This document shows positions 8,611-45,821 of a DNA stretch of 64,000 nucleotides, piece after piece. Below the pieces are notes generated by a model. That model was not told the DNA's origin. It saw only the letters and a list, made by a program, of their open reading frames with translations, and made no database searches. Source of the stretch: a bacterium (lineage in GTDB: Bacteria > Patescibacteriota > Microgenomatia > Daviesbacterales > UBA10151). The translations under genes and the position numbers were made by a program. The stretch's first letter is position 1. Each line of letters opens with the position of its first letter. The DNA is taken from NCBI GenBank assembly GCA_021790255.1, contig JAJYIE010000002.1, positions 413 through 64,412 of the forward strand. Reading direction: 5' to 3'.

Positions 8611-10320
8611 ATGGCACAAGCTGCTCAATTTGGTCTTGAAGATATCCTTTTTAAGCAAGGCTTGATCAACTCCAGCCAACTTTCTGCTATCAAACTGGAA
8701 TCAATTAATAGCGGCAAGGGTGCCGAACAGCTTATCCAGGAGCATCAAATAGTGCCCCCGGACAAGTTGCTGGCTGCCCGGGCTCAGCTTTTGGGGGTGC
8801 CTTTTATTCATCTGGAGGGGCGGCCGATTTCCTCTGATGTTTTGAATTTGGTGCCGGAATCTGTAGCACGACGTTACAACTTAATCCCCTTTGATAAAAA
8901 AGCGGACAAACTATTCGTGGCAATGCTTGACCCTCTGGATTTGCAGGTGGTGCAGTTTATTGAAACAAAGTCCGGGTTGTTTGTGAAGCCATATCTGGCA
9001 GCGACTGATGATATTAATGCAGCGATTGGCGAACAATACTCTCAAAACCTTTCCACCGAAGTTACCTCTGCTTTAAAGGAAGTTACCGAGCTCAACAAGC
9101 AGGCCACAGAAGACACTGTAACTCAGGAGGGAACGGAAATTATCCGGGAAGCCCCAGTCTCCAACATCATTACTCATCTGCTGGACTATGCCGTAAAGGC
9201 TAATGCTTCAGATATCCATATTGAACCTTTGGAAGATAAGACCCGGGTCCGCTACCGGATTGATGGCATTTTGCATGAAAAGGTTATCCTGCCGCGGGGA
9301 GTACATGACGCTCTGGTTTCCCGCATCAAAATCCTTTCCAGCTTAAAAATCGAGGAGAAGCGGTTACCACAGGACGGCCGTTTCAGCTATGCTGCCGGGC
9401 AAAAAATGTATGACCTTCGTGTTTCCACCGTTCCGACTATCTATGGGGAAAAAGTGGTAATGAGACTTTTGCCCAAAAACACTCTCCCTCCTACCCTGCA
9501 TGATTTGGGGCTCCGGGCTATGGCTTTAAAAATACTGGAAGCACAAATTACCAGGCCGCATGGCATCATATTAATTTGCGGGCCAACCGGTTCCGGTAAA
9601 ACTACCACCCTCTACTCTGTTTTAACCAAGCTTTCCACCACCAAGGTCAATGTAGTGACAGTAGAAGATCCTGTTGAGTACCGGATTGCCGGGGCTAACC
9701 AGGTCCAGGTGAATCCGCAAATCGGCCTGACTTTTGCTTCAGCTCTGCGCTCTTTCCTGCGCCAGGATCCCAATATTATCCTGGTGGGAGAAGTCCGGGA
9801 TTCGGAAACAGCGGATCTGGCCATTCAGGCTGCTTTAACGGGCCATCAGGTTTTTTCCACCATACATACCAACACGGCTGCAGGTGCCCTGCCCAGGCTT
9901 TTAGATATGGGTATGGAGCCATTTCTGATTGCCTCTTCCGTTAACGCTGCCGTCGGGCAAAGAATCCTGCGGCAAGTGTGCATGCATTGCCGGACAGCCT
10001 TTACCCCACCTCCGGAAGTGGAAGCAAGCATCAGGAAAGTTTTGGGCAAGCTGGCGCCTGCCGATAAACAGTTAGCTCTTTACCGGGGGACGGGTTGTGC
10101 CGAGTGCGGAAATACAGGTTACTCCGGTCGGATCGGTATTTTTGAGGTTTTACCTATGTCGACTAAAATCATGCAGCTTATTCTTGAACGGGCTTCGGCG
10201 CAGCAAGTGGAAGACCAAGCAGTTGCAGAAGGTATGATAACATTAAAGCAGGACGGTTATATGAAAGCGTTGGAGGGGATCACTACCCTGGAGGAGGTGT
10301 TAAGAGTAGCAGAAGAGTAG
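8611..10320 (+). CDS. pilB: Type IV pilus assembly ATPase PilB (GspE family)
   Basis: N-terminal GSPII_E_N-like region, Walker A GPTGSGKTTT, and a tetracysteine motif CMHCR...CAECGNTGY. Confidence 0.9.
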   Translation: MAQAAQFGLEDILFKQGLINSSQLSAIKLESINSGKGAEQLIQEHQIVPPDKLLAARAQLLGVPFIHLEGRPISSDVLNLVPESVARRYNLIPFDKKADKLFVAMLDPLDLQVVQFIETKSGLFVKPYLAATDDINAAIGEQYSQNLSTEVTSALKEVTELNKQATEDTVTQEGTEIIREAPVSNIITHLLDYAVKANASDIHIEPLEDKTRVRYRIDGILHEKVILPRGVHDALVSRIKILSSLKIEEKRLPQDGRFSYAAGQKMYDLRVSTVPTIYGEKVVMRLLPKNTLPPTLHDLGLRAMALKILEAQITRPHGIILICGPTGSGKTTTLYSVLTKLSTTKVNVVTVEDPVEYRIAGANQVQVNPQIGLTFASALRSFLRQDPNIILVGEVRDSETADLAIQAALTGHQVFSTIHTNTAAGALPRLLDMGMEPFLIASSVNAAVGQRILRQVCMHCRTAFTPPPEVEASIRKVLGKLAPADKQLALYRGTGCAECGNTGYSGRIGIFEVLPMSTKIMQLILERASAQQVEDQAVAEGMITLKQDGYMKALEGITTLEEVLRVAEE

Positions 10321-10323
10321 CTT

Positions 10324-11394
10324 ATGCATATAAGACAACTATTAGATTTAGCAATCGCTAAGAATGCTTCAGATTTGCACTTGGTGTATGGTTATCCACC
10401 GGCACTGCGGATTGATTCGGCGCTGGATTTTATCCACGGCACAAACCCCCTGACCGATGAAGATATTGTCGGTTTGGTTTTGCCGCTTTTGTACCCGGCT
10501 CAGAAACGTATGTTTGAAAGCACTTATGAGCTGGATTTTGCAATTCCTTATCAAAAGAAGGCCCGTTTTAGGGTGAACTTGTTCCGTGAGCAGGGGCATG
10601 TTTCGGCAGCTTTCCGTCTCCTGCCTTTGGTTATTCCCAAACTGGAATCTTTGGGACTACCGGTACAGGTTTATCCTTTGAGCGAACTGCGTCAGGGATT
10701 TATATTGGTAACTGGCCCGACAGGCCACGGCAAATCGACAACTTTGGCTGCAATACTAAATAAAATTAATGAAACAAGACCGGCCAGGATTATTACCATT
10801 GAGGACCCGATTGAATATGTTTTCCCTCAGGCACGCGGGCTGGTCAGCCAACGGGAGATGCTGGTTGATACTAAGAGCTGGTCAAACGCTTTAAGGGCAG
10901 CTTTGCGGGAAGATCCGGACGCGGTGATGGTAGGAGAAATGAGAGATTACGAAACAATTGCTGCGGCTATCACCATTGCCGAAACTGGGCATTTGGTTTT
11001 TGCATCGCTGCATACCAACTCCGCGGCTCAGGCAGTGGATAGGATTATTGACGTTTTTCCGGAGCAGCAGCAATCTCAGGTGAGAAGCCAAATTGCCGCT
11101 ACGCTGGAAGCGGTCATTTCCCAGCGGCTGATCCCGACTCTGGGTCCGGGACGGGCTTTGGCAGTTGAGCTTTTAATGAGGACTCCCGCCTTAGCATCAA
11201 TGATTCGCGACGGGAAAACCCACCTGATTGATAACCTGATCCAAACTTCAGCTGAATTCGGGATGATACCGATGGAGGCATCATTGGCCCGTTTGGTGCA
11301 GGAAGGCAGAGTAAGTATAGAGACAGCCCAAAACTATTGCCTGCATACGGATGTTCTGGAGAAACTGGTTGGGGGTTTTCATGCCAGTATTTAG
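10324..11394 (+). CDS. pilT: Type IV pilus retraction ATPase PilT
   Basis: Walker A GPTGHGKSTT and the PilT-type GHLVFASLHTNSAAQAVDRIIDVF region. Confidence 0.9.
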   Translation: MHIRQLLDLAIAKNASDLHLVYGYPPALRIDSALDFIHGTNPLTDEDIVGLVLPLLYPAQKRMFESTYELDFAIPYQKKARFRVNLFREQGHVSAAFRLLPLVIPKLESLGLPVQVYPLSELRQGFILVTGPTGHGKSTTLAAILNKINETRPARIITIEDPIEYVFPQARGLVSQREMLVDTKSWSNALRAALREDPDAVMVGEMRDYETIAAAITIAETGHLVFASLHTNSAAQAVDRIIDVFPEQQQSQVRSQIAATLEAVISQRLIPTLGPGRALAVELLMRTPALASMIRDGKTHLIDNLIQTSAEFGMIPMEASLARLVQEGRVSIETAQNYCLHTDVLEKLVGGFHASI

Positions 11395-12589
11395 TTACAC
11401 GGCCAAGGATTTAAAGGGCAACTACCATAAAGGTGAAGTTGAAACAGCCGACGAACATCAGGCGGCGGTGATTTTGCGGCGCAAAAGCCTGATAGTGATC
11501 TCCTTAAAATCATCATCGGAGAAAGGCGGATCGTTTTTCAAACAGTTTTTCTTCCGGGTCTCTTTCAACGAGGTGGTAATTATGACCAGGCAGCTGGCTA
11601 CGATGATTCAGGCCGGGCTGGTCTTATCAGAGGCGCTGGATATTCTGGAGGAGCAGCAGGCCAACAGTAAAATGAAACTTGTACTGCGGGATGTTTCTAC
11701 TGATATCAAAGGCGGAATTGATTTTGCATCAGCGCTGGAAAAACACCCGGAGGTTTTCCCGAAACTTTATGTTCAGCTGGTGCGGGCCGGGCAGGCCTCA
11801 GGTAAGCTGGATACAGTACTTTTGGAGCTGGCATCCAACCTGGAAAAGCAAAGGGATTTTCAAAGCAAGGTCAAAGGGGCAATGATTTACCCCGCTGTGA
11901 TTCTGGTTATGATGCTCACAGTCATGATGATTATGATGTTTGTGGTTATTCCTCAGCTGACTAAGATGTTCAGCGATGCTCAGATGCAGCTTCCCCTTCC
12001 CACGAAAATTGTTATCGCCATCGCCTCTTTCTTGATAAATTTCTGGTGGCTGCTGCTGATAGGAGTAGCGGGGCTTATCTACGGAGCCAAAAAGTTTTTA
12101 TCCACTCCGACCGGCCGGCTAATCTATGATAATTTCATGATTACCTTTCCGGTGGTAGGAAATATATCCCGCCTGGTAATAATGACCAACTTCACCCGCA
12201 CCCTGGGGCTTTTGGTGGCGGCCGGGATCCCCATTATTGACGCCATTAAGATTGTCAGTGATGTGGTGGGCAACAGTGTTTACAAAAAAGGCTTATTGGA
12301 AACATGCAAGGGTGTGGAGCGCGGCCTAACTTTTTCCAGCCAGCTTCTGGCTCTGCCCCTCTTCCCGCGCATTGTCGGGCAAATGATTAAAACCGGTGAG
12401 GAAACCGGAAAACTTGATGATATTATGTACCGGCTGGCAGATTATTTTGAATCAGAGGCGGATAATATCTTAAAAAACAGCACAGCGCTGGTGGAACCGA
12501 TTACCCTGGTAATTTTGGGGGCAGGAGTAGGCTTTTTGGTGGTTTCCATAATTTTGCCGATTTACCAGTTAAGCACGAACATAAAATAG
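11381..12589 (+). CDS. pilC: Type IV pilus inner-membrane platform protein PilC (GspF family)
   Basis: Starts MPVFSYTAKDLKGN..., the canonical PilC N-terminus. T2SSF repeats and TM helices. The track start at 11351 would overlap pilT, so the internal ATG is chosen. Confidence 0.85.
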   Translation: MPVFSYTAKDLKGNYHKGEVETADEHQAAVILRRKSLIVISLKSSSEKGGSFFKQFFFRVSFNEVVIMTRQLATMIQAGLVLSEALDILEEQQANSKMKLVLRDVSTDIKGGIDFASALEKHPEVFPKLYVQLVRAGQASGKLDTVLLELASNLEKQRDFQSKVKGAMIYPAVILVMMLTVMMIMMFVVIPQLTKMFSDAQMQLPLPTKIVIAIASFLINFWWLLLIGVAGLIYGAKKFLSTPTGRLIYDNFMITFPVVGNISRLVIMTNFTRTLGLLVAAGIPIIDAIKIVSDVVGNSVYKKGLLETCKGVERGLTFSSQLLALPLFPRIVGQMIKTGEETGKLDDIMYRLADYFESEADNILKNSTALVEPITLVILGAGVGFLVVSIILPIYQLSTNIK

Positions 12590-12664
12590 TTAATTTTTAA
12601 CCAAACACTTGACGAAAATCGGAGACTATGACAACATTAAAATAAATTGAGAGGGGGTGAGGAT

Positions 12665-13210
12665 ATGAGAAAAAATGCTCGCGGTTTCACTTTGGTTGAG
12701 CTTTTGGTAGTTATTGCCATTATTGCTATTTTAGCGGCAGTGGTGGTACTGATTATTAATCCGTTGGAGCTGATGAGGCGCTCACGTGATGCAGCCAGAC
12801 TGACTGACCTGGCAAACCTTCAGCAGGCTATTAATGTAGCGGCACAGGAAGCAACAGGTTCCGGAGTCGGCATTCTCTGTTTCGGCCAAACAGGCAATCC
12901 CACTCCAGGTACGGTTATGTGCCAGGGCAATACAAACACCGATCCTTCCAGCACCAGGCGTAATGCTGATGGTACAGGATGGGTAAAGGTGAATTTGTCC
13001 AGCCAGCAAAGTGTGTCAGTGCCAACTCTACCGGTAGATCCAATTAACAATAGTACCTATAACTACACTTATGCCTCTGACGGGCAAAGCTGGGAAATTG
13101 ATGCTGTTTTGGAGTCGCAACAGCAAATTAATGCCGGAAGGATGAGTAATGATGGTGGAAATAACCCCAACGTTTATGAGGTTGGTTCTAACCTGCTTTT
13201 GCTTCCGTAG
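12665..13210 (+). CDS. Type IV pilin (likely major pilin), class III signal peptide MRKNARG|FTLVELLVV
   Basis: Prepilin cleavage/methylation motif G|FTLVE with Glu+5. Strong SD GAGGGGGTGAGG sits 3-5 nt before the ATG at 12665. The track start at 12647 is a TTG. Confidence 0.8.
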   Translation: MRKNARGFTLVELLVVIAIIAILAAVVVLIINPLELMRRSRDAARLTDLANLQQAINVAAQEATGSGVGILCFGQTGNPTPGTVMCQGNTNTDPSSTRRNADGTGWVKVNLSSQQSVSVPTLPVDPINNSTYNYTYASDGQSWEIDAVLESQQQINAGRMSNDGGNNPNVYEVGSNLLLLP

Positions 13211-13211
13211 A

Positions 13212-14111
13212 ATGGTGTCAGCGGTCATAGGATTTTTACTGGGTGTTAGTTTAGGAAGTTTTGCTAAGGCGACCGCTGACAGGGTTATTGCCGGGAAATC
13301 ATTGAGGGGAAGGTCGTACTGCTGGTCATGTAAAAGGAGACTAAAGTGGTACGACCTTTTTCCTGTACTCTCCTACATCTCTTTGCGCGGCCGTTGCCGT
13401 TTTTGCCACAAAAGGATTCCTCCACAGCTTTTTATCTCTGAGATAGCCATGGGGGTATTAGTGGCTCTCGTTTTTTGGACGGCCCTGCTCCCCTACCCCG
13501 ATTTCTTGCTGCTGCCTTACTGGGAAATGGGCTTAATCGGGTTTGAGGTTTTGTTTAAGGTTTTTATCGTTTGTGTGATGTTTATTGTTTTTTGGACGGA
13601 TTTGCAAGGCGGGTTGATCTTTGACCGGGTTATGTACCCGGCTCTGGAGGCAGCAGCCATATTTTGGGTGGTTCTTTCAGCCCTGCGTTCTGCTTCATTA
13701 TATTATCAGCTGCAGGGAAGTTTAATCGGAAGGTTTCTGCTGCCTCCGCACACTGATTATTTATACCAGCACTTAAAGTCTATCTGGATGCTGCCGGTGG
13801 AGTCCTTGCTGGCAGGGGTTTTGGCTGCCCTCTTTTTTATTATCCTTATTTTGGTAACGCGTGGCCGGGGCATGGGCTGGGGGGATGTTAAATATGTGCT
13901 CTTTTTGGGACTGGCCCTGGGCTTTCCAAATATAATAGTGGGCTTAATACTCTCTTTTGTTTTCGGGTCGGTTGCATCTTTAGTATTGATAGTAATGAAA
14001 AGGCGGCATTTCGGCCAAACTATCCCTTTCGGTCCATTTCTTTCCATGGGCGCTTATGTGGCACTGCTTTACGGCCAGCAGATCATGGATTGGTATTTAA
14101 AGGCTTTTTAA
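13212..14111 (+). CDS. pilD: Prepilin peptidase / N-methyltransferase PilD (A24 family)
   Basis: CWSC...CRFCHKRIP zinc-ribbon tetracysteine and polytopic membrane domains. The start is taken at the ATG right after the pilin stop. The track start at 13149 overlaps the pilin. Confidence 0.85.
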   Translation: MVSAVIGFLLGVSLGSFAKATADRVIAGKSLRGRSYCWSCKRRLKWYDLFPVLSYISLRGRCRFCHKRIPPQLFISEIAMGVLVALVFWTALLPYPDFLLLPYWEMGLIGFEVLFKVFIVCVMFIVFWTDLQGGLIFDRVMYPALEAAAIFWVVLSALRSASLYYQLQGSLIGRFLLPPHTDYLYQHLKSIWMLPVESLLAGVLAALFFIILILVTRGRGMGWGDVKYVLFLGLALGFPNIIVGLILSFVFGSVASLVLIVMKRRHFGQTIPFGPFLSMGAYVALLYGQQIMDWYLKAF

Positions 14112-14182
14112 ATTTGGTCCTAAATTGGTGTATTGACAAGCATTTTAAGTTATGACAACAATAGATTAGATAAAAAAGTTCT

Positions 14183-14692
14183 ATGAAAAAACTACTGCCC
14201 AAAACTGCTAATAACCCCGAAGGCTTTACTCTTGTAGAACTTATGGTTGTCATCACTATTTTGGCCATTCTGGCTTTGGTTGGTTTGACTGCTTTTGGTG
14301 AGGCGCAGAAAAGGGGACGTGATGGTAAAAGGATTCAGGAAATTGAAGCAATTGCGCAGGCATTAGAGATTCACTATGTAAATACTGGTGCTACACCAGG
14401 GTACCAACCACTTGTAAACACTTGGTTTGCTGATGCTACTATTCCCCAAGATCCTCAGCATGGTGCGACTCCTAATTATGATTATTGTTTAAAGATGAGT
14501 ACTTCAACTCCTCAAACTTGTGATGCGGCGATTGGCCACCACCCTGCAGGAAACGGAAGTTGTCTTACTGGTGATACTCCAATAGTAAGTAATATAACGA
14601 ATACGCCTACAGCAGGAACGAGATATTGGATAGTCTATGCATTTTCTGAAGCAAATGATACCGATGTTTACTGTAAAACAAGTAGCCAGTAA
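14183..14692 (+). CDS. Prepilin-type protein (leader MKKLLPKTANNPEG|FTLVELMVV)
   Basis: Class III signal peptide with Glu+5. Confidence 0.75.
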   Translation: MKKLLPKTANNPEGFTLVELMVVITILAILALVGLTAFGEAQKRGRDGKRIQEIEAIAQALEIHYVNTGATPGYQPLVNTWFADATIPQDPQHGATPNYDYCLKMSTSTPQTCDAAIGHHPAGNGSCLTGDTPIVSNITNTPTAGTRYWIVYAFSEANDTDVYCKTSSQ

Positions 14693-14711
14693 GGGTTAAA
14701 GAGTTTAGAAG

Positions 14712-14734
14712 GCCGCCGGAAGGCGGCTTTTTTT
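14712..14734 (+). terminator. Rho-independent terminator (GCCGCC-ggaa-GGCGGC then T7)
   Basis: 6-bp GC stem, 4-nt loop, and a run of seven T immediately 3' of pilin gene 2. Confidence 0.6.
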
Positions 14735-14831
14735 GTGGGCTTTCCCGTGATATCTGGAAGGGGCGTAGCGAGCCGATGGGTTTAAGCGAGACCGGAATGA
14801 CAACAATCAGCAAATGTGCTACCTTTGTTAT

Positions 14832-15302
14832 ATGAGGGGAAAATCAGGGCTTACCTTAATCAGCAAACTTGCCAAAGGAAACCCGGCGGGTTTTACTTTG
14901 ATTGAACTGATGGTCACCGTTTCCATTGTGGCGGTGCTTATGAGCGCAGGAATGACTCTTTATGGTGATATGCAAAAAAACGGTGCGGACCAGCAGCGGG
15001 AGGGAGATTTAGCGCAGATCCAAAGCGCCCTGGAACAATATAAAGCGGACCAGCATTATTACCCGAGTTCGCTGCCGGCTGTAGGCAGCGCTTTGAAAGA
15101 CCCTGCTAATGCCGTGACATATTTGTCGGCTGTTCCGGGAGATCCGTCATCCGGCGCTTCATATTCATATGTGGCCGGGCAAACCGGCTGTACTACTGCC
15201 AATAAAAATTGTTATAGTTACACCCTCTGTGCTACTCTGGAAAATACCACGGGTGGCAGTTGTTCTCACGGCACCGGTAATTATGAGGTAGATTCACCAT
15301 AA
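14832..15302 (+). CDS. Prepilin-type protein (leader ...KGNPAG|FTLIELMV)
   Basis: Class III signal peptide with Glu+5. The internal ATG is preferred over the track start at 14814. Confidence 0.7.
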   Translation: MRGKSGLTLISKLAKGNPAGFTLIELMVTVSIVAVLMSAGMTLYGDMQKNGADQQREGDLAQIQSALEQYKADQHYYPSSLPAVGSALKDPANAVTYLSAVPGDPSSGASYSYVAGQTGCTTANKNCYSYTLCATLENTTGGSCSHGTGNYEVDSP

Positions 15303-15304
15303 AA

Positions 15305-15715
15305 ATGAGGCGTGATAGTGGGTATACTCTAGTCGAGCTAATGGTGGTAATTACCATCATTACTGTTTTGACTTTGGTGGCCGGAGTTTATTACCATGAT
15401 ATGCAGCTGAACGCCCAAGACGCAAACCGGTTAAAGGATTTGACTGCCATTAAGCAGGCGCTGGAGATGTACAGAAACAGTAACGGATCATATCCGTCCA
15501 ATATAAGTCAGTTCGTGCCTAAATATCTTAATGCCATACCCACCGATCCTGGTCCTTCCTCCTACGGTTACGTATTAATTTTACAACCGACCAACTATGC
15601 TTTATGTGCCCACGAAGAAGGTAGCGCTAACTTTGGCCAGCCGCCGTATTTGTGCACCCTATCGGATTGTGGAGGTGGCCTGGGCAGCTGTAATATGGGA
15701 CTTTCTTCGGAATAA
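15305..15715 (+). CDS. Prepilin-type protein (MRRDSG|YTLVELMVV)
   Basis: Class III signal peptide with Glu+5. Confidence 0.75.
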   Translation: MRRDSGYTLVELMVVITIITVLTLVAGVYYHDMQLNAQDANRLKDLTAIKQALEMYRNSNGSYPSNISQFVPKYLNAIPTDPGPSSYGYVLILQPTNYALCAHEEGSANFGQPPYLCTLSDCGGGLGSCNMGLSSE

Positions 15716-15716
15716 T

Positions 15717-16352
15717 ATGAAAATAGTCAGGATCCGTGGTTATACATTAGTTGAGCTTTTGGTAGTTATTTCAATCATGGCGATAATGACTTTAAGCGCG
15801 ATGCCGATTTTTAGGAACTACCAAAATGATCAGAAGGTTAAAGCGGCAGCCCTGCAGCTTCAGGAAGCTCTGCGCGAGGCTCAAAATAACGCCTTAAGTG
15901 GAGTAGTTTGCGCACCGAATAATCCGGCAGATAACTGGGGAATAATTTTCGGAGATGACCAAACTACCTCCACTAATAATTATCAGGTGGCACCTGTATC
16001 TTATAGCGCTTCCGGTAACAGCTTGATTGTAAGTTCCCCTTGTCCGGGCGGAAGCCCTCCCAGCCCGCCGCTTATCACAAGTAATTTTGCTTCTCCGATT
16101 CAAATTCTAAAGCTGAACGGCACTTCCGGTCATAATTGTGCTAATCATGGGCATCTGAAATCCCTGGGCATTGCCTTTCAAAATGTGTCCGGGGCGATTA
16201 AGTTTGCCAGCGGCAGCAATAGCCCCAATTGTGCTCCCAACAGCGGCTTTTTGGAATTTGTCCTGGCTCCGGCCAGGGCTACCTCTCCGACGGTGACCGT
16301 TCACGTTGACAACGGTGGGGCGATTTATACTTGCCAGGGCAGCGGGTGTTAG
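15717..16352 (+). CDS. Prepilin-type minor pilin/pseudopilin (MKIVRIRG|YTLVELLVV)
   Basis: Class III signal peptide. The internal ATG is chosen because the track start at 15597 lies inside the previous gene. Confidence 0.75.
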   Translation: MKIVRIRGYTLVELLVVISIMAIMTLSAMPIFRNYQNDQKVKAAALQLQEALREAQNNALSGVVCAPNNPADNWGIIFGDDQTTSTNNYQVAPVSYSASGNSLIVSSPCPGGSPPSPPLITSNFASPIQILKLNGTSGHNCANHGHLKSLGIAFQNVSGAIKFASGSNSPNCAPNSGFLEFVLAPARATSPTVTVHVDNGGAIYTCQGSGC

Positions 16353-16394
16353 TTCGTTGACACCCCCCTCTCAAACCAATATAGTGGAATAAGG

Positions 16395-16901
16395 ATGAAT
16401 TTGCCCAAAAAGTTGTATTGGAGGCAAACTGGTCAGGGTCTGACGGAGGTATTAATTGCGCTGATGGTGGGGGCGATTCTGGTAGGGGCGATGGTGGTGG
16501 TAGTAATTACCAGCATGAAAAACTCGGAATATGCCCAGGATCAGACCAAAGCTACAAAATACGCCCAGGATGCCCTGGACCAGATCCGGGCTATCCGTGA
16601 CCGTAATGGGACAGTTGGTTGCAGCGGCTGTACTACCGGCACATTCCAAGACTTCTTTAGTGCCGCTCCCCCACCCCTGCCAAAATATTTTACTATCAGT
16701 TCCGGGGCGCTGGAAGAACAGCCGTCATCAACACCAGTGGCAATAACAGGTGAAGTCGGCCTGTCCCGGGAGATCGAAGTTGCCAGTCCTCCCGGCGGCT
16801 ATGCTGGGGTAAAGGTGACAGTCTGGGTTTATTGGAATGATTCGAAGGGCCAGCATTCATCACAACTGGAAACGGTTTTGACGCCTTACGGTTATAATTG
16901 A
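16395..16901 (+). CDS. Prepilin-type minor pilin (atypical leader ...QTGQG|LTEVLIALMV)
   Basis: Gly, then a hydrophobic helix with Glu at +3/+4. PilW/FimT-like architecture. Confidence 0.6.
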   Translation: MNLPKKLYWRQTGQGLTEVLIALMVGAILVGAMVVVVITSMKNSEYAQDQTKATKYAQDALDQIRAIRDRNGTVGCSGCTTGTFQDFFSAAPPPLPKYFTISSGALEEQPSSTPVAITGEVGLSREIEVASPPGGYAGVKVTVWVYWNDSKGQHSSQLETVLTPYGYN

Positions 16902-17554
16902 GGAGACGCATGAAAAAAAAATATTTACTGAGACTGCATGGTTTTAGTGTGGTGGAGCTTATTATAGTCATTGCAATGGCCGGTGTACTGGGCATTGTCT
17001 TTACCACTATAATGATCCAGTCAATGCGCGGGCAAAATAAAGTTAATGCCATCGACCAGGTCAAACAAAACGGCCAGCTTGTAATGAATGAGCTTTCCAA
17101 CGAAATCCGCATGGCTGATCAGGTTGTTTGCACAACCACAACAGGCCCGCAAACTCTGGTAGTGCTGGAGAATGGCTTGTATTACCGCTATACGTTGGTT
17201 TCCCCAAGCGGCGGAGCTAATGGCTATATTAAGAAGGAGATTTCCCCGACAGTAGATTCGGGGACAAATCCGCCCTTGAGTGCGGGTACCACTAAAGATC
17301 AGGTGTGTGCAACGGTTTTTTCTTCCGCGGCCACCTCACTCACATTAAGTGATACCAATACACAAACTGGGGTCTCAATCAATGCTCCGGCCGCTCCTGA
17401 TACGGTGTTTACCGAGAATACCGCAGGCGGTTATGATACAGTGACAATTAAATTTGTAATTTCCCCGGCTGTGAGCGTAAGTAGCCTTGAGGAAAACAGG
17501 GTTTCTCCCGAAACTTTTACGACTACGGTGGAACTGCAAGGAATGCAGAGATGA
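16898..17554 (+). CDS. Prepilin-type minor pilin (…RLHG|FSVVELIIV)
   Basis: Class III signal peptide with Glu+5. 4-nt overlap with its neighbours. Confidence 0.7.
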   Translation: MRRRMKKKYLLRLHGFSVVELIIVIAMAGVLGIVFTTIMIQSMRGQNKVNAIDQVKQNGQLVMNELSNEIRMADQVVCTTTTGPQTLVVLENGLYYRYTLVSPSGGANGYIKKEISPTVDSGTNPPLSAGTTKDQVCATVFSSAATSLTLSDTNTQTGVSINAPAAPDTVFTENTAGGYDTVTIKFVISPAVSVSSLEENRVSPETFTTTVELQGMQR

Positions 17555-18495
17555 AAACAACCAACAAACAGCTTGGGCAGATCGCCATTATCAGTTTGCT
17601 TATTATAGTCACGGTTTTGGCAATCGCACTCTCAGTTGTGGGCAGAAGCACAACAGAGCTTTCCTCCTCCAGCCGGACGGAAGAATCTTCCCGGGCACTG
17701 TCTGCTGCCGAAGGCGGTTTGGAGCAGGCTTTGTACCAACTGGGCACGGGATCCACAGCTGTTAATATCGCTCCCAACTCACCTTTCGGAAATAATACTT
17801 CCCTGAGTGTACAATCCTTCTCCTTGCCGGCCTCGGGGTTAGCTTTAGCTTATCCTCCTATTACCAAGTCCGATTTCGCCCAATTCTGGCTGGCTAACCC
17901 GACCCAAGTCGACGCCAACGGTGTACCGGCAAGTTACTATATGGCCTCAACTTTTAATGTTTATTTCGGCATGACAGCGCAGGATTTGATTAACATGAAC
18001 CTTTCCGGCCATTATACCTCCGCTCCTGATGATCAGCCGGCGCTGGAGGTCAGGTTGATTTCCTTTAACGGTTCAGGTTATGAATCAGCTAGCTATCTTT
18101 TTGACTCGTATTCAGGCAGAAACCCTCCGAATAATTTTCAGCTTCTGAGTTGTGGTAGTTTTTCTGTGTCAACCAATACAGGCAGTCCGGATGACCAGAA
18201 GTCATTTTACTGCAGAATCCAGATAACGGTCAAAGACGGTAGTGGAAATTCTTATATGCCGAGCGTATCCCATTATCCGGTGATGGCCAGGGCAAGGATT
18301 CTCTATAGCTCGCTCGCCCATCCTGTGGCGGTTGAACCAATATCAGGGTATAACCTCTATCCGCAAGCTAATATTGTTGAATCCACGGGAACGATTGCTA
18401 ACGTCCAGAGAAAGATCAGTGTGTTCCAGCAGCAAAATGTCCTGCCGATTTTTCTTGACTTTGCCCTGTTTTCCGGCGGTTCACTGTCCAAATGA
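17551..18495 (+). CDS. PilX-N-like minor pilin (…KQLG|QIAIISLLIIV… ALSAAEGGLEQAL)
   Basis: N-terminal hydrophobic helix followed by an ALSAAE(A/G)GLE-like PilX_N signature. Confidence 0.6.
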   Translation: MKTTNKQLGQIAIISLLIIVTVLAIALSVVGRSTTELSSSSRTEESSRALSAAEGGLEQALYQLGTGSTAVNIAPNSPFGNNTSLSVQSFSLPASGLALAYPPITKSDFAQFWLANPTQVDANGVPASYYMASTFNVYFGMTAQDLINMNLSGHYTSAPDDQPALEVRLISFNGSGYESASYLFDSYSGRNPPNNFQLLSCGSFSVSTNTGSPDDQKSFYCRIQITVKDGSGNSYMPSVSHYPVMARARILYSSLAHPVAVEPISGYNLYPQANIVESTGTIANVQRKISVFQQQNVLPIFLDFALFSGGSLSK

Positions 18496-18917
18496 AAAAG
18501 TTTTTAGTAGAAAAGCAAGCGGGTGTCACGCTGGTAGAGTTGATTTTGGCTCTTTTGGTGGTATCCGCCCTGATTATTATTCTCAGCAATCTGCCTTCCT
18601 CACTGTCTGCCATCAGCCGCAATCGCAACGGCTCAATCGCCCGGGACGCAGCCAGCAAGCAGATGGAATATCTGCGTCGATTAGGTTATGATAACCTACC
18701 TCCCACCGGAAGCTTCTCTGACAGCTCTTTGAACAGCTTGCCATTTGCTACTGCCAGCTTTGAGGTTGATCCCTGCCCGGTTACAATTTGCACCAGCGGT
18801 GATCCCAATAGAGAGCCGGCTAAACTGGTGAAGGTAGATGTGAGCTGGAATGAATCCGGCGATAATAAAAAAATTGATCTTACCACTCTTATCAGTAAGG
18901 GAGGTTTAGGCCAATGA
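18492..18917 (+). CDS. Prepilin-type minor pilin (PilV-like; MKKFLVEKQAG|VTLVELILAL)
   Basis: Class III signal peptide with Glu+5. Confidence 0.7.
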   Translation: MKKFLVEKQAGVTLVELILALLVVSALIIILSNLPSSLSAISRNRNGSIARDAASKQMEYLRRLGYDNLPPTGSFSDSSLNSLPFATASFEVDPCPVTICTSGDPNREPAKLVKVDVSWNESGDNKKIDLTTLISKGGLGQ

Positions 18918-19480
18918 AGGGATTTACCCTGGTAGAAACGCTTCTGACTACCAGCATCGCGGTGATTGTGGGGATAGTTTTACTATCCATTTTTCTTAAC
19001 CACACTGGGGTTTTTTATAAGCAAAACGCTCTGGTTACTGAAGGCTTAGGCTTAAATGATGCCATGAGTGTTTTAAGCAACCAGATCCGGCAAGGTGTAA
19101 GTGTGGCTGCCGGCTATCCGGAATCTTCCCCAACCATCCTTTCATCAGATACAGTTTTAGTCCTTAAATTACCTGCCCTTTCTTCCTCCGGGGTGATTAG
19201 CAATGTTTATGACTTCGTGGCGATTTTCCCAGATTTAAGCACCCCAACTGTGCTGCGGATGCAGACTTTCCCTGACCCGGCCAGTATCAGGCCGGGGAGC
19301 AACCAGGTACTAACCACCTTGCTGCAGTCGGTCAAATTTACCTACTATGACCATAGTGGCAATGTTGTTACTCCGACCAATGCTGCTTTGGTAGGGGTGG
19401 ACCTGACGGTTTTATCCAAGACCGGCTCAATCGGCTCCAGCAGGACAACTAAAGCGGTGGTTGATTTGAGGAACCATTAA
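18914..19480 (+). CDS. Prepilin-type minor pilin (MKG|FTLVETLL)
   Basis: Short class III leader with Glu+5. Confidence 0.7.
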   Translation: MKGFTLVETLLTTSIAVIVGIVLLSIFLNHTGVFYKQNALVTEGLGLNDAMSVLSNQIRQGVSVAAGYPESSPTILSSDTVLVLKLPALSSSGVISNVYDFVAIFPDLSTPTVLRMQTFPDPASIRPGSNQVLTTLLQSVKFTYYDHSGNVVTPTNAALVGVDLTVLSKTGSIGSSRTTKAVVDLRNH

Positions 19481-21289
19481 ATGAGAAAAAGGCATTTTTT
19501 CAGCAGTGAAAAATGTTCAGAGGGACAGATTTTAATGCTTGCGCTGTTTATTATGGTGATTGTGATGACCACCACCCTGATTATTATCAGTGGCTCACTG
19601 ATTTATTCCGAAAACACCAATTACTCACTACAGTCGCTGCAGGCTCTTAACTTGGCGGAAGCCGGAGTGGATAAGGCTGTTGCTTCGCTGAATGCCACAA
19701 GCGGCGCTTACTCAGGCGAGGACGGTACGGTTTTAGGCGCCGGACAGTATTCAGTGGTGATTACAACACCTGATGCCGGAACTAAACTTGTGGAATCCAC
19801 GGGATTTGTTCCCAGCAAAGACAATCCGAAGGCAAAAAGAACAATTGATATAACTGTGGCCAAGGGAGTGGGAGTGGCTTTTAATTACGGAGTCCAGGTT
19901 GGAGAAGGCGGTTTTCAGATGGCCAATGGCAGTGAAATTAAGGGGTCAATTTATTCTGACGGCAATATTATTATGAGCAACAACGCTCAGATTACCGGGG
20001 ACGCTTATGTTGCCGGCGGTACGGCCCCAAATCCTGACCAGCAGAGCGTTTGTAGCACTTACTGCGGTGATTTTATTTTCGGAACAAATGTTAACGGGCA
20101 GGACCGGCTGGATGTGGCACAAAGTTTTGTTCCCGGTGTTTCCGATTACCTAAATAAAGTGTCAATCAGGCTGAAAAAACAGGGCACGCCGCCGGACCTT
20201 ACCCTACGGCTTTTGGGAGACAGCGGTGGTCAGCCTGACCAAAAAAACGTCATTGCTTCCGGAACCCTGACAGCTGGGTTGGTAGGTAATGAGTATGGCT
20301 TTGTTGATGTGCCTTTTTCTTCACCTCCCAAGGTAACTGCCGGAACTGTCTACTGGATTATGCTTGATACCTCAGAAGACAGCAATAATTACTGGTACTG
20401 GGAGGCAGATACTATGCAGGGATACACCTTAGGCCAGGCGAAATGGTCACAAAACTGGCAGGCTAAAAATCCTATCTGGAATACCCCCTCGCCTCCTCTG
20501 GATTTGGACTTTGAAACATATATGGGCGGCACAGCCACATATATTCAGGGCAGCCAGGGTGTGACTATTGGCGGAGATGCTCATGCTAATACCTTGGAAA
20601 ACCTGCTGATAACCGGCAGTGCGTATTATCAGGTAGCGCAGAATATTTCGGCAGCCCATTCTTATCCCGGATCTGCCGATCCGCCCAATGTTGCTATGCC
20701 GGTGTCGGAAAGTAATATCTTATCATGGGAAAGCCGGGCTGAAAAAGCCAACCCGTCACTTGGACCGGTTAATAATTGTGTGGCCACCCTTGGCCCCGGT
20801 AAATACAACGGTGATGTGACAATTCTCAGCAACTGCACGGTCACGATTGAAGATCCGATCTGGATTACCGGGAATTTAACACTGGGAAACGGGGTTCAGT
20901 TTAATCTTGATCCTTCTTACGGTCCATCTTCTGGGGTAATTTTAGTGAGCGGCAAGGTAAACATTTCGAATACGGTGACAATAAACGGCTCGGGGAGTGC
21001 GGGGAGCTACCTGATGATGCTGACAATTTTTGATTCTCGCCCCGGGTCTCCCACCGCTGGCCAAATTGCCCTTTCAACGTCAAACGCCGGAACTGCCGGT
21101 ATCCTCTACGCGCCTTACGGTATTGCCCAAATTAACAACGGAGATAAACTGAGTGAAATATCGGCCTGGGAGGTGGAAATGGGCACAGGGGTACAAATAA
21201 CATACCAAACCGGTTTTGCCTCAACATTCTTTTCAGTCGGCCCCTCCGGCGCTTTTTCCCTGGTTAAGGGAACATATCAGCTGAAGTAG
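19481..21289 (+). CDS. Large (602 aa) pilus-associated protein: PilX-N-like N-terminus plus Gly/Asn-rich beta-helix-like body (putative tip/adhesin)
   Basis: N-terminal TM helix followed by LNLAEAGVDKAV (PilX_N-like). Body has repetitive G/N/T-rich segments such as SDGNIIMSNNAQITGDAYVAGG. Confidence 0.55.
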   Translation: MRKRHFFSSEKCSEGQILMLALFIMVIVMTTTLIIISGSLIYSENTNYSLQSLQALNLAEAGVDKAVASLNATSGAYSGEDGTVLGAGQYSVVITTPDAGTKLVESTGFVPSKDNPKAKRTIDITVAKGVGVAFNYGVQVGEGGFQMANGSEIKGSIYSDGNIIMSNNAQITGDAYVAGGTAPNPDQQSVCSTYCGDFIFGTNVNGQDRLDVAQSFVPGVSDYLNKVSIRLKKQGTPPDLTLRLLGDSGGQPDQKNVIASGTLTAGLVGNEYGFVDVPFSSPPKVTAGTVYWIMLDTSEDSNNYWYWEADTMQGYTLGQAKWSQNWQAKNPIWNTPSPPLDLDFETYMGGTATYIQGSQGVTIGGDAHANTLENLLITGSAYYQVAQNISAAHSYPGSADPPNVAMPVSESNILSWESRAEKANPSLGPVNNCVATLGPGKYNGDVTILSNCTVTIEDPIWITGNLTLGNGVQFNLDPSYGPSSGVILVSGKVNISNTVTINGSGSAGSYLMMLTIFDSRPGSPTAGQIALSTSNAGTAGILYAPYGIAQINNGDKLSEISAWEVEMGTGVQITYQTGFASTFFSVGPSGAFSLVKGTYQLK

Positions 21290-21351
21290 CGAAGAGAAAG
21301 AATCTTGCAAAGTGGGGCTTTTGCACCTAAACTGGAGATAGGTAAAAGATT

Positions 21352-22383
21352 ATGGCTGCCAAGTTAGTTACAGGTTTGGATATCGGAACTTTCTCCATCA
21401 AAGCAGTGGTGTTATCCCACGGAGGCAAGCAGCCACACCTTGTTTCCTTCGGAGCAGTTTCCGCTCCCCAACCAGGCCTCGCTTCCGAGGGGAAAGCTGA
21501 CCTGGAAGCTGAAGCTGAGGCTATCAAGGGGCTGCTTGATTCTATTAAAGCTCCCTCCTCTTCAGTGGTAGTAGCACTGCCGGAATCAAAGATTTTTACC
21601 CGGGTGATCAGCGACATTCCATATATGACGGATGAGGAGCTGGCATCGGCTATCCGCTATTCGGCGGAAGAGTTTGTTCCTCTGCCGGTAGACCAGGTTA
21701 ACCTGTATTGGCAAACCGTGGCCCGCTCTAAGGAACAAAACAGCACCCTGGTCTTTGTAGTGGCTACTCCCAAGGTGATCACAGAAAAGTATATGGATGT
21801 GCTGCAGATGGCTAAACTAAAGCCCCTGGCTTTGGAAACGGAATTGATTGCTGCCACCAGGGCTTTGGTGGGCAATAATCCGTATGCTCCCACCACTCTG
21901 ATTGTGCAAATCGGGGCAAGCTCAACAGATTTTGCCGTGGTTTCAAAGGGGATGATGTTTTTAACCCGTTCAATTGCTACCGGCGGCATGGCTTTGACCA
22001 GGGCGCTGGCTCAATACCTGAACTTTGAACAGCCACAGGCGGAGGAATATAAAAAGGTTTATGGTTTGGCTGAAGACCAGCTGGGAGGCAAAATTTACCA
22101 GGCGCTAAAGCCTTTGACGGAGGTTTTAGTTTCAGAAGCCAGAAGGGTAATTCAGGCTTTTCAAGTCAAAAACCCTCAAAATCCTATCAAGCGGGTAGTG
22201 CTGGCGGGAGGTGGGGCAAACATGCCCGGCGTAGTGGTCTATTTTGCCAATAGCTTGGGTCTGGAAATCCAGGAAGCGGATCCATGGTATTTTGTGGATA
22301 AAGACCCGGCCATTGCCCAGCGCCTGCAGGCAGAGGCCATGAATTATACAATTGCTGTAGGGTTGGCAATGCGGGAAGGTTGA
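21352..22383 (+). CDS. pilM: Type IV pilus assembly protein PilM (actin-like ATPase fold)
   Basis: GLDIGTFSIKAVV N-terminus and an FtsA/PilM-like fold. Confidence 0.85.
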   Translation: MAAKLVTGLDIGTFSIKAVVLSHGGKQPHLVSFGAVSAPQPGLASEGKADLEAEAEAIKGLLDSIKAPSSSVVVALPESKIFTRVISDIPYMTDEELASAIRYSAEEFVPLPVDQVNLYWQTVARSKEQNSTLVFVVATPKVITEKYMDVLQMAKLKPLALETELIAATRALVGNNPYAPTTLIVQIGASSTDFAVVSKGMMFLTRSIATGGMALTRALAQYLNFEQPQAEEYKKVYGLAEDQLGGKIYQALKPLTEVLVSEARRVIQAFQVKNPQNPIKRVVLAGGGANMPGVVVYFANSLGLEIQEADPWYFVDKDPAIAQRLQAEAMNYTIAVGLAMREG

Positions 22384-22402
22384 GTCTCACCCTAAGCTTA
22401 AA

Positions 22403-22960
22403 ATGGCTAATTCAATTGCAATTAATTTATTACCCAAAGAAGTGCTGACGGCCCGCAGCCGCAGCGTTAAAGTCACACTGGCTTACAAAATCAGTATCGT
22501 TTTGCTGATTATTTTGGCCATTGTCACCTCAACCATTCTCTCGGTTCGTTTCAGCCAGAAAATCCGCCTGCAGCAAGCTCAGGACCAGACAAAAAATCTG
22601 GAGAATAAAATTTCAGCATTGAATCAGAGGGAACAACAACTGATAACTATTAAACAAAAATTGGCTAGTATTGCTCAGCTTACTGGTGGCGACAAAGCGG
22701 AAAAAGAACTGTTTGACAAGATGGTTTCTCTGGTACCCCCGGAGATGACTATTACCGAGGCAATGGTGGATCCTAAGGGAACAATGGAAATAAGCGCCAC
22801 TACCACTTCGTTGCCGGCAATAGATACTTTTATTAAGGCTATTGAAATCCAGATGAAGACTTCAAATATGATCCAGAAACTAGAACTGGAATCTTTGTCA
22901 CTTGACCCGAGCGGTGATTTTAAGATGCTGTTTAAAATCTTACCGCCGGGAACAGCCTGA
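22403..22960 (+). CDS. pilN: Type IV pilus assembly protein PilN
   Basis: The INLLP motif at the N-terminus followed by a single TM helix. Confidence 0.8.
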   Translation: MANSIAINLLPKEVLTARSRSVKVTLAYKISIVLLIILAIVTSTILSVRFSQKIRLQQAQDQTKNLENKISALNQREQQLITIKQKLASIAQLTGGDKAEKELFDKMVSLVPPEMTITEAMVDPKGTMEISATTTSLPAIDTFIKAIEIQMKTSNMIQKLELESLSLDPSGDFKMLFKILPPGTA

Positions 22961-22973
22961 ACAAAAGAAAAAT

Positions 22974-23762
22974 ATGGATACGCTGAAAATTTTTTTTGGT
23001 GATCAGAAAACCGTATTCTGGTCAGTTTGCACGGCAGCGACGGCATTGGTTGTAATATACTTTGTCATTATTCCGCAAGCGCATGCTTTCATAGACGTTG
23101 GGCAGCAGCTTAAGCAGCTGCAGGGCCGCTCCCAAGCCTTAAACACTAAACTGGCTGCCTTACAGGCAGAAGATGAGAATGCGGATAAAGAAAATCTGCA
23201 GGTTGCTTTAACTATTTTGCCGACAGAAGAAAAGGTAACTGAAGCTCTGATCACGGTTCAAGACTTGCTGGCTAAAAGCGGTATGGCTTTATATACGGCA
23301 AACTACACAACCCAGAGAACAAAAGTCGGCAGCGGATTTACCCTAAGTGTTGTGGCCAAAGGTGACATGAATGGGGTACGCAGTTTTCTATCCAGTTTAG
23401 ACAGTGCCCCACGAATTTTCCGTGTTAATTCAATAGACGTCCGGTCAGATCTGAGTAACCATGGGGTGATGGACGCAGAGATACCGCTGAGCGTTTTTTA
23501 TGAACCATTGTCGGGTGCCATATCCACAGGCAATTTGGATAAGCCGCTTCCCCAGCTGAGCGCCCAGGATAAACAGCTACTGGAGAAACTTACAGGTGTT
23601 CTTGCCCAGTTTCCGGAGAGCGCCAGCGGCTCGGCTGTCGAAGTTGGGAAAGATAACCCTTTTGAGTCAAGTCAGCCTCAGCCAACCGCAGCTCCTACCC
23701 CTCAGCCCACTCCCCTTGAAGTTGCTCCGACCTCGACTCCGAGCGCCTCATTGCAGGGTTGA
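22974..23762 (+). CDS. pilO: Type IV pilus assembly protein PilO-like with C-terminal Pro/Thr-rich tail
   Basis: Single N-terminal TM helix, coiled coil, then a PilO-like domain. The tail is PQPTAAPTPQPTPLEVAPTSTPS. Confidence 0.6.
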   Translation: MDTLKIFFGDQKTVFWSVCTAATALVVIYFVIIPQAHAFIDVGQQLKQLQGRSQALNTKLAALQAEDENADKENLQVALTILPTEEKVTEALITVQDLLAKSGMALYTANYTTQRTKVGSGFTLSVVAKGDMNGVRSFLSSLDSAPRIFRVNSIDVRSDLSNHGVMDAEIPLSVFYEPLSGAISTGNLDKPLPQLSAQDKQLLEKLTGVLAQFPESASGSAVEVGKDNPFESSQPQPTAAPTPQPTPLEVAPTSTPSASLQG

Positions 23763-38816: not shown

Positions 38817-39834
<1,018 letters not shown>

Positions 39835-39902
39835 GGGTATGGTGTATAGCGTTTAGTTTGGGATAACAATACCCTGTATGCTACATCTTTACGCTAATTA
39901 AG

Positions 39903-40397
39903 ATGGATATTTTACAAAGTTTTGGCGTTAAGCCGATATTACTTTTAGCGCAGGCAGTAAACTTTTTTATCCTGCTTGTTATATTGAAGAAGTTTTTGTA
40001 TAAACCGGTCTTAAAGGTGCTGGATGAACGGCGCAGGAAAATTACTGAAAGCTTAAAGAATGCCGATGAGATTGAAAAACGGCTGGAGCAAATCGGCGAA
40101 GACCGGGAGAAAAAACTGCAGGAAGCCGCTAGGGACGCAGAGGAAATAATCAGGGAAGCTACACAGACGGCCGGGGTGATTGTGGCTCAAGCCCACGAAA
40201 AAGCCGCCGCCGATGCAGAAAAGATTATTGAAAAGTCCCGGCAAAGTCTAGAGCTGGAACGGGAAAAGCTGCACCAAGAAGTGCGCTCTGAGCTGGCTGA
40301 CCTGGTGGTGGCGGGTTTAGAGAAAGTCATCGGGAAAACGTTGACGGAAAAATACAAAAAAGAAACTGTGGAGAAGTCGTTGCATGAAATTGGATAA
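39903..40397 (+). CDS. atpF: F0F1 ATP synthase subunit b
   Basis: Single N-terminal TM helix followed by a long charged helix. Confidence 0.8.
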   Translation: MDILQSFGVKPILLLAQAVNFFILLVILKKFLYKPVLKVLDERRRKITESLKNADEIEKRLEQIGEDREKKLQEAARDAEEIIREATQTAGVIVAQAHEKAAADAEKIIEKSRQSLELEREKLHQEVRSELADLVVAGLEKVIGKTLTEKYKKETVEKSLHEIG

Positions 40398-40782: not shown

Positions 40783-40795
40783 TTAGAAATTTTCT

Positions 40796-43155: not shown

Positions 43156-43226
43156 GTGATTGCATGTAGAGTGTGGAATAAGATTCCCGATAAGCTCGCC
43201 TTGTTTCCGGTACACCTTAACTAAAT

Positions 43227-45552
<2,326 letters not shown>

Positions 45553-45821
45553 TGCTTCCCTGGAAATAATCAATTGTATATTTATCGTCTTCTGAGAGCA
45601 TCATGATTTTATAGTATTCCATGCCCTCTTTGGGCTGCAGGAATATTTGCTCAATCATTGGATCATCAGCAGGGATAGCTTTACTGCTGGCAGGAAGAAT
45701 CCCGTTCTTACAGGTAAGCGGCGCATCAAAATATGTAAGGGCTACTGTTTACCGTAAAACTACACAACAAAAGACTGCACTGATTTGTCTGCCCTGCTGA
45801 TTTTGGTGTAAGATTATTAAT

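Follow-up and report, generated by a model that had tools for sequence, protein, structure and literature searches.

To our knowledge, type IV pili (T4P) are the one surface organelle common to nearly all Patescibacteria, the candidate phyla radiation (CPR). In cultivated Saccharibacteria, T4P drive motility and host association, and two of their minor pilins, PilX1 and PilX2, which are large and have lectin-like domains, were proposed as tip proteins (PMC11623550 / PMC12206443). The Daviesbacteria are placed within the Microgenomates group of Patescibacteria, and for a closed Microgenomates genome only one T4P locus was reported, with pilQ absent (PMC7143001); PilQ is regarded as diderm-specific. 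In Thermus, the GspK-like tip pilin ComZ has a beta-solenoid insertion that resembles ice-binding proteins, and it was argued to cap a competence pilus and to bind DNA (PMC6561018). In this study a T4P locus was analyzed at positions 8611–23762 of a 64,000-nucleotide stretch of contig JAJYIE010000002.1 (the whole 64-kb stretch is called the window), which includes the gene for a pilin-like protein of 602 amino acids (aa), named big602. The likely explanation of the whole is a single complete type IVa-like pilus locus of a Daviesbacteria-like Patescibacterium, an uncultured, ultrasmall bacterium without an outer membrane, in which the 602-aa protein would be the tip pilin.

The region contains 18 genes, all on the + strand, which encode PilB, PilT, PilC, a major pilin, PilD, ten more pilin-like proteins and PilM/N/O; the co-directional arrangement and the coordinates given in a preliminary description of this DNA were confirmed. 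That description had also recognized a T4P locus in the presence of pilB, pilT, pilC, pilD and pilMNO, and the family matches bore this out. A set of 59 open reading frames (ORFs) of the window was compared with Pfam (47 of the 72 listed ORFs of at least 120 aa, the rest being nested or antisense), and genes were also scored with NCBIfam models against their curated cut-offs.

The extension ATPase PilB (8611–10320, 569 aa) matched Pfam T2SSE (5.7e-129) and, in its N-terminal part, MshEN (5e-19). Its top NCBIfam model was the type IV-A PilB (575.8 bits, with the equivalog cut-off of 675.65 not reached), as compared with 252.8 bits for the ComGA model, and its nearest solved relatives were ATPases of type IVa pili (T4aP), namely Geobacter PilB (5zfr, 9.5e-135), Thermus PilF and Myxococcus PilB. 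The retraction ATPase PilT (10324–11394, 356 aa) scored 416.8 bits with TIGR01420 PilT/PilU (cut-off 319.1) and matched T2SSE at 2.1e-45. The platform protein PilC (11381–12589) showed two T2SSF domains (4.3e-62); its ORF opens at 11351, and the ATG at 11381 is the likely start, the N-termini of orthologues aligning from MPVFSY. PilD (13212–14111, ORF opening at 13149), the prepilin peptidase/N-methyltransferase, matched A24_N_bact (1.8e-22) and Peptidase_A24 (31.3 bits, gathering 26.5), and its translation shows the CxxC...CxxC and GWGDVK motifs. The T2SSF domains of PilC and both PilD domains were above the gathering scores.

The actin-like alignment protein PilM (21352–22383, 343 aa) was matched over its full length by PilM_2 (2.2e-49). 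No Pfam PilN match was obtained for the 185-aa ORF located between pilM and pilO (22403–22960), which encodes a bitopic protein with one transmembrane helix, a coiled coil and an N-terminal INLLP motif kept in 57 orthologues. The INLLP motif binds PilM, and because of this motif, the transmembrane helix and the place of the gene, the protein was accepted as the probable PilN. PilO (22974–23762, ORF opening at 22902, 262 aa) reached 24.2 bits with Pfam PilO (gathering 22) and also matched GspM at 1e-6, short of the GspM cut-off. Its C-terminal tail of ~60 residues (window 23580–23762) is a low-complexity segment rich in Pro, Thr, Ser, Ala and Gln, ending in ...SSQPQPTAAPTPQPTPLEVAPTSTPSASLQG, and might span the cell wall.

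The gene for big602 (19481–21289) encodes a modular PilX-like pilin. It had been described as a giant ORF with a pilin N-terminus and a beta-helix-like body, and it is indeed a real, conserved single protein that joins a pilin N-terminus to a beta-rich body. A word search gave 594 homologues of ~590 aa, and when 1.84 billion representatives were compared with a profile of the family, 860 clusters matched at E<=1e-30. The possibility that the ORF is a fusion artefact was rejected, since the ~590-aa length is kept in hundreds of homologues and a confident single-chain model was obtained. This AlphaFold2 model (pLDDT 85.9, pTM 0.70) showed a 59-residue alpha1 helix, a four-stranded sheet and beta-rich segments. 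Along the sequence could be distinguished a G15|Q16 site, the alpha1 helix (residues 14–72), the pilin sheet (79–128), predicted beta-solenoid segments and a choice-of-anchor R beta-sandwich (208–336), the latter matching NF041539 with 35.2 bits (cut-off 30). One big602 homologue is named choice-of-anchor R by NCBI, and 18 of 50 relatives matched DUF7305 in the C-terminal beta-rich part. Within the family G15 is invariant and Q16 near-invariant, Glu5 is absent and two Cys pairs are conserved. No tandem repeats were found in the DNA of the gene.

A Foldseek comparison of the big602 model with the PDB gave phage baseplate/receptor-binding proteins (5e-6) and carbohydrate-binding modules (CBM) of families CBM6/36, over ~200 columns, and an ice-binding-protein solenoid was also among the matches. 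The best pilin match was Thermus ComZ (6qvi, E 6.5e-4, probability 0.89, TM 0.17–0.20). Members of ~410–440 aa (e.g. P0170, P0217, P0284) match in the N- and C-terminal parts only, seemingly without the choice-of-anchor R sandwich, and members of ~950–1000 aa (e.g. P0149, P0202, P0220) have ~350–550 extra N-terminal residues; the domains of this family appear to be exchangeable modules.

Related loci were collected by a scan of one genome per species, in which a relative of the 602-aa protein was encoded in 289 species, and 80 loci were fetched. Named homologues of big602 belong to Candidatus Daviesbacteria or to the "Patescibacteria group", and for this reason the host organism is placed, by sequence relationship, as a Daviesbacteria-like Patescibacterium. 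The entire gene order is kept in L002–L066 of the 80 fetched loci (~60 Daviesbacteria-like species): pilB-T-C, pilA1, pilD, one to six genes of the pil2/pil3 type, seven minor pilins and pilMNO. The minor-pilin repertoire had been regarded as unusually large, a view that this shared order does not sustain; judged from these ~60 related species, the locus is typical of its lineage and not exceptional. A specialization for host or surface attachment had also been suggested. The mean identity of big602 (48%) was above that of every other minor pilin and above that of PilD, and the sandwich is kept across phyla; so high a conservation argues against rapid host-specific diversification of big602.

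In distant Patescibacteria (contigs named Kaiserbacteria, Doudnabacteria and Paceibacterota), two pilins of ~135 and ~190 aa and a protein of ~590 aa were found in the same order, beside pilB/pilC or pilM. The big602 family is conserved at full length with 35–39% identity across several candidate phyla, its best conserved parts being the sandwich and the first solenoid segment (41–51%). Homologues of pil9, the first partner gene, were found in 73 loci, some of them on the Kaiser-, Doudna- and Paceibacterota-type contigs, and in every case homologues of pil10 and big602 followed immediately; pil10 was found in 75 loci. In those distant contigs, neither the first module nor the additional major-type genes (see below) were detected. 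Since the trio is the only minor-pilin module retained there, pil9-pil10-big602 would be the ancestral core set, and the pil5–pil8 block would be an addition of the Daviesbacteria lineage. A wider proposal, which we regard as somewhat unlikely, is that the trio forms a radiation-wide tip complex of Patescibacteria, with big602 as the first host-contact or DNA-capture receptor and with the module duplicated in Daviesbacteria for a second pilus; if so, the big602 family (the 860 clusters mentioned above) would be a general handle on host attachment in the CPR.

Two contigs of the metagenome-assembled genome (MAG) E14_metabat.bin.170_sub (L006 and L029) each have a full minor-pilin/big602/pilMNO block, and L057 has two big602-like ORFs; these doublings are either real locus duplications or mixed bins and split genes. 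Among the fetched records, many TPA MAG entries with Daviesbacteria-type loci (L004, L005, L008, L010 and others) are titled 'uncultured Gammaproteobacteria bacterium', whereas loci of Paceibacteria or Doudnabacteria type (L067–L076) bear the title 'uncultured Candidatus Saccharibacteria bacterium'. When one 'Saccharibacteria'-titled contig was used to seed a search, Doudna- and Kaiserbacteria names came back, and such titles look unreliable.

No Secretin, PilP or Gsp outer-membrane family was found among the 59 Pfam-scanned ORFs of the window, and none of these ORFs matched GspC/D/L. The PilP/PilQ genes that follow pilMNO in the diderm T4aP arrangement were not found at this position, where a convergent trmD follows pilO at a distance of 12 nt. 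The absence of PilP and PilQ noted before was thus upheld for the locus and for the window, and a secretin is probably missing from the genome as a whole. The monoderm or episymbiont-style envelope that had been deduced from this absence agrees with published CPR genomes (PMC7143001).

A scan of the six-frame translation of the 64 kb with a regular expression for the canonical class III signal (G|xxxxE plus a hydrophobic segment) revealed nine such signals, all nine in this locus and on the + strand; one false match corresponded to ATP synthase subunit c. In the ORFs of 314 and 602 aa the conserved site is G|Q, and a hydrophobic residue takes the place of Glu5, as in PilX/GspK. Of the eleven class III leaders originally counted, nine are therefore canonical, and the other two are of the PilX/GspK style. 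The gene junctions include four 4-nt overlaps (three ATGA and one TTGA), one direct abutment and four gaps of 1–3 nt, and among the last six pilin genes all the junctions are either 4-nt overlaps or an abutment.

The pilA1 gene (12665–13210, ORF opening with TTG at 12647) encodes a protein of 181 aa with an N_methyl match (3.7e-10). It is by far the most conserved pilin (65% mean identity, with the first ~50 residues nearly invariant), and its N-terminus is similar to those of T4a pilins, for example PilA of Geobacter and of Thermus. On account of this highest conservation, a strong Shine-Dalgarno sequence and a conserved promoter-like element, pilA1 was taken as the probable major pilin. Two major-pilin paralogues follow pilD: pil2 (14183–14692, 169 aa; N_methyl 2.4e-8; hhalign to the pilA1 family 99.5%, 107 columns), present in 0–5 copies in related species, and pil3 (14814–15302, 162 aa, start uncertain; N_methyl 3e-8, T2SSG 9.8e-5; hhalign to the pil2 family 99.9%). 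The next gene, pil4 (15305–15715, 136 aa; N_methyl 2.3e-8), encodes a small GspG-like pilin paralogue whose top NCBIfam match was GspG (1.8e-11, below the cut-off) and whose best-match relatives were present in only five related loci. The number of pil2/pil3-type genes varies from one to six among species, and pil2, pil3 and pil4 look like alternative major-type pilins, not minor pilins.

The other seven pilin genes probably represent one H-position gene followed by two paralogous I-J-K-like modules. The gene in the GspH/FimU position is pil5 (15717–16352, ORF opening at 15597, 211 aa; N_methyl 5.7e-6), which gave sub-threshold N-terminal matches to PRK10506, ComGD and GspH and is conserved in 53 loci. 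The first module consists of pil6 (16395–16901, 168 aa), a PilV/GspI-like minor pilin with an N-terminal NCBIfam PilV match below the cut-off (1.1e-8) and orthologues that keep G|QxLxE; pil7 (16898–17554, 218 aa), in the PilW/GspJ position, with the class III signal HG|FSVVE; and pil8 (17551–18495, 314 aa; also K314), in the PilX/GspK position, without Glu5 and with G9/Q10 invariant. An antisense ORF of 138 aa (16696–17112, − strand) lies across pil6 and pil7 and is probably a chance ORF. The second module consists of the PilV/GspI-like pil9 (18492–18917, 141 aa; N_methyl 1.1e-3), pil10 in the PilW/GspJ position (18914–19480, 188 aa), whose leader in MKG|FTLVE is merely MKG, and big602.

Paralogy was assessed with hhalign, by comparing the profiles of orthologue alignments that were made with the fetched loci. 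The families of pilA1, pil2 and pil3 are full-length homologues of one another (99.4–99.9%), as are those of pil6 and pil9 (96.9%, 131 columns). The pil7 and pil10 families are related past the N-terminal helix (98.1%, 92 columns), and K314 and big602 share the N-terminal ~60 residues only (96.7%, 60 columns). The membrane-helix controls PilN and PilO remained below 20% against every pilin family. The minor pilins had been called mutually divergent, and this does not describe them well: pil2, pil3 and pil4 are major-pilin paralogues, and the rest fall into two paralogous modules. Recombination of pilin cassettes was rejected, the sole DNA repeats being N-terminal coding segments of 64–80% identity, and no tandem repeats being present.

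K314 has few detectable relatives (18), and its AlphaFold2 model (pLDDT 85.5) consists of a helix (7–65) and a beta globule. Both K-position proteins are all-beta past alpha1 in their models, and the alpha-helical insertion typical of GspK was not seen. The two PilX-N signatures reported earlier hold at the family level only. K314 matched PilX_N at E=0.01 (16.2 bits, gathering 25.5) and 6 of its 18 relatives did so (best 9.4e-6); big602 and its 50 close relatives had no match to Pfam PilX_N (PF14341), which is carried by distant family members, several of them called 'Tfp pilus assembly protein PilX' by JGI.

In the proposed mechanism, PilD would cleave and methylate the prepilins, and PilB would polymerise them on the platform protein PilC, with PilM-PilN-PilO as the holding complex; PilT would depolymerise the pilins, so that the fibre would be retractile. 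These steps follow from the family assignments. The fibre subunit would be PilA1, pil2, pil3 and pil4 would supply alternative major-type pilins from their own promoters, and the products of the seven downstream pilin genes would be priming and tip subunits. Glu5 is absent from big602, as in GspK/PilX, and for this reason big602 may be the first subunit assembled, at the very tip, above pil10 and pil9; the most likely role of big602 is to cap the pilus. There it would display the beta-solenoid and the CBM-like choice-of-anchor R beta-sandwich to a conserved ligand. This ligand would most likely be a glycan on the cell surface of a host or substrate, and less likely DNA as in Thermus ComZ, a preference that is based on the folds resembling CBM and phage receptor-binding proteins, on the match to choice-of-anchor R and on the acidity of the surface. 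Retraction could then pull the cell to its target or bring the ligand in.

Several points weigh against this explanation. Pilus expression, cleavage, assembly and the tip location are predicted from the genes alone, and the secretin absence applies to the 64 kb covered here. The labels I, J and K are based on the order of the genes, on the sizes and N-terminal motifs of the proteins and on profile matches below threshold: the Gsp and Com matches of the pilins were restricted to the shared N-terminal segment and were all below the cut-offs, and none of the Gsp and Pil minor-pilin models was matched at its curated cut-off by a member of the I-J-K-like modules. The family profiles of big602 and K314 gave nothing meaningful against PDB sequences; likewise, the K314 model had no PDB fold match at E<1e-3, and no solved GspK or PilX fold was matched. 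The protein big602 is acidic (net −18; family median −7), which disfavours simple DNA binding. Finally, the promoter and terminator calls described next are pattern matches, and promoter-like sites overall were no commoner than in shuffles.

Upstream of pilA1 there is a promoter-like element TTGACG-18 nt-AACATT (12609–12638, + strand) with the shared ATGACAACATT motif, at which relatives keep CTTGAC-~17 nt-TGTGnnTACAAT and a GGGGGTGA Shine-Dalgarno sequence. A similar element, TTGACA-18-AACAAT, containing ATGACAACAAT, precedes pil2 (14133–14162, + strand), and ATGACAACAAT is also found upstream of pil3 (14797–14807, + strand). The extended −10 motif ATGACAACAWT has four copies in the window, as compared with 0.07 expected, three of them 27–37 nt upstream of pilA1, pil2 and pil3. 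The fourth copy, ATGACAACAAT at 61596–61606 (− strand), lies inside infC (61532–62011, − strand) and may be an internal promoter of the downstream genes, or chance. An interpretation of ATGACAACAWT as a regulator site was rejected, the motif being the extended −10 region in relatives. Directly 3′ of pil2, an intrinsic-terminator-like hairpin GGCCGCC-GGAA-GGCGGC followed by T7 was found (14711–14734, + strand; −21.5 kcal/mol, z = −2.36), and the 42-nt gap before pil6 contains a promoter-like site TTGACA-17-TATAGT (16357–16385, + strand; 11/12), which is given as a lead only. Because of the motifs before pilA1, pil2 and pil3 and the hairpin after pil2, the locus is predicted, from these pattern matches, to consist of several transcription units and not of one operon. 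The operon-like character attributed to it earlier therefore holds only in part, in view of these internal promoter-like sites and the T7-tailed hairpin.

The paralogous modules and the repeated promoter-like elements raise the possibility of two filaments built by one machine, the pilA1 fibres being primed by one module and the pil2/pil3 fibres by the other, which would give distinct pili, e.g. for motility or adhesion and for DNA uptake. We consider this somewhat less likely than not, and it would refine the explanation given above without replacing it. In agreement with it, pilA1, pil2 and pil3 each have the ATGACAACAWT element, pil2 has its own terminator-like hairpin, and both modules are conserved in ~60 species. 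A study on Thermus describes two pili from one machine (PMC7203116), and a preprint on cyanobacteria reports distinct core minor-pilin complexes that prime specialised filaments (10.64898/2026.02.12.705559). Saccharibacteria build thick and thin T4P. However, the pairing of a given major pilin with a given module is a supposition, and distant Patescibacteria manage with the trio alone. Moreover, the seven minor pilins could equally serve one fibre, as in Pseudomonas, where a single fibre has FimU-PilVWX-PilE plus PilY1.

Returning to the single pilus with a tip-located big602, the nature of its ligand could be different from a glycan: big602 could be a ComZ-like DNA receptor, and the pilus chiefly a DNA-uptake organelle feeding nucleotides to an auxotrophic cell. 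ComZ is the best solved pilin match, the matched ice-binding-protein solenoid is the closest fold to the ComZ solenoid (PMC6561018), PilT is present, DNA uptake via T4P has been proposed for the CPR (PMC7143001), and the high conservation of big602 suggests a universal ligand. We nevertheless find this reading unlikely. The TM-scores are ~0.2 and no sequence similarity to ComZ was detected, the big602 family is acidic, its extra choice-of-anchor R/CBM-like sandwich points to glycans, comEA, comEC and dprA were not found in the 64 kb, and Saccharibacteria mutants in T4P-2 pilins kept normal competence. A type II secretion system or Com-type pseudopilus instead of a true pilus was rejected as highly improbable: several pilins have sub-threshold N-terminal matches to GspG/H/I/J and ComGC–GF and PilO resembles GspM, but PilT is above its family cut-off, PilM_2 was matched at full length beside PilN and PilO, PilB carries MshEN and scores far above the ComGA model, no GspC/D/L was found in the window, and the Gsp/Com pilin matches stay N-terminal and below cut-offs.

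The locus is flanked by housekeeping genes (gyrB, Mur ligases, trmD, rpsP, rnc, recG, ATP synthase, aminoacyl-tRNA synthetases and the penicillin-binding protein (PBP) 1A). The ATP synthase operon (window 38817–47598) is interrupted by an ORF of 275 aa with no Pfam match (42328–43155) between atpA and atpG, and atpC (47188–47598) is parted from atpD by two Pfam-negative ORFs (45822–46271, + strand; 46515–47099, − strand). Envelope genes nearby encode a class A PBP that has a Big_7 domain at its C-terminus (54195–56780), an NAGPA-type phosphodiester glycosidase (51654–52628) and a Peptidase_C39-like protein (85–570). These are compatible with an envelope that contains peptidoglycan, and the window shows no outer-membrane genes.

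Secretin-less T4P in the CPR have already been published, and the present locus adds another example without opening a new category of system. As in T4P-1 of TM7x and in the single locus of Microgenomates Ch65, PilB, PilT, PilC, PilD, PilM/N/O and several pilins are encoded in one locus with no secretin. TM7x PilX1, like big602, is the largest pilin, has an extra domain (a beta-jelly-roll), lacks a canonical PilD signal and was proposed to be at the tip. The first TM7x locus has 5 pilins, as compared with the 11 pilin-like genes found here, and the present locus differs from both in having two modules of the I-J-K-like kind and, besides pilA1, three major-type paralogues.

The two modules share with GspI-J-K and PilV-W-X the small-medium-large order, the translational coupling and a last member without Glu5 and with a PilX_N-type N-terminus at the family level; they differ in that no curated cut-off was reached, the GspK helical insertion was not seen and the 314-aa protein has no PDB fold match. 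Thermus ComZ (6qvi, with PilA2) and big602 are both proteins of ~550–600 aa in the GspK position of a minor-pilin row. The pilin helix, sheet and beta-solenoid of ComZ have probable counterparts in big602, whose AlphaFold2 secondary structure fits this design; a canonical prepilin site is predicted in neither, and a position at the tip has been argued for both. In contrast, no sequence similarity is detectable, the global superposition is weak (TM ~0.2), big602 has the additional choice-of-anchor R beta-sandwich, and Thermus is a diderm with PilQ. Modular pilins are also found in Streptococcus sanguinis, whose PilC carries a concanavalin-like lectin module. Like big602, S. sanguinis PilB is a pilin fused to a bulky binding module (vWA) at the tip of a secretin-less T4aP (10.1101/2021.01.27.428410). 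The modules differ (vWA or lectin versus beta-solenoid and choice-of-anchor R), and there is no sequence relationship.

A published survey found pilins in general to be poorly conserved across Patescibacteria, in contrast to the full-length conservation of the big602 family across phyla. Two points seem to be absent from the CPR pilus papers: the cross-phylum large pilin with its two partners, and the module duplication in Daviesbacteria. Since the large pilin and its two small partners keep their sequence and order across phyla, unlike other pilins, big602 is a concrete candidate for a conserved tip or receptor component. It is also a practical marker by which the T4P loci of uncultured CPR bacteria can be found and compared, and studies of structure or binding could be directed at it.

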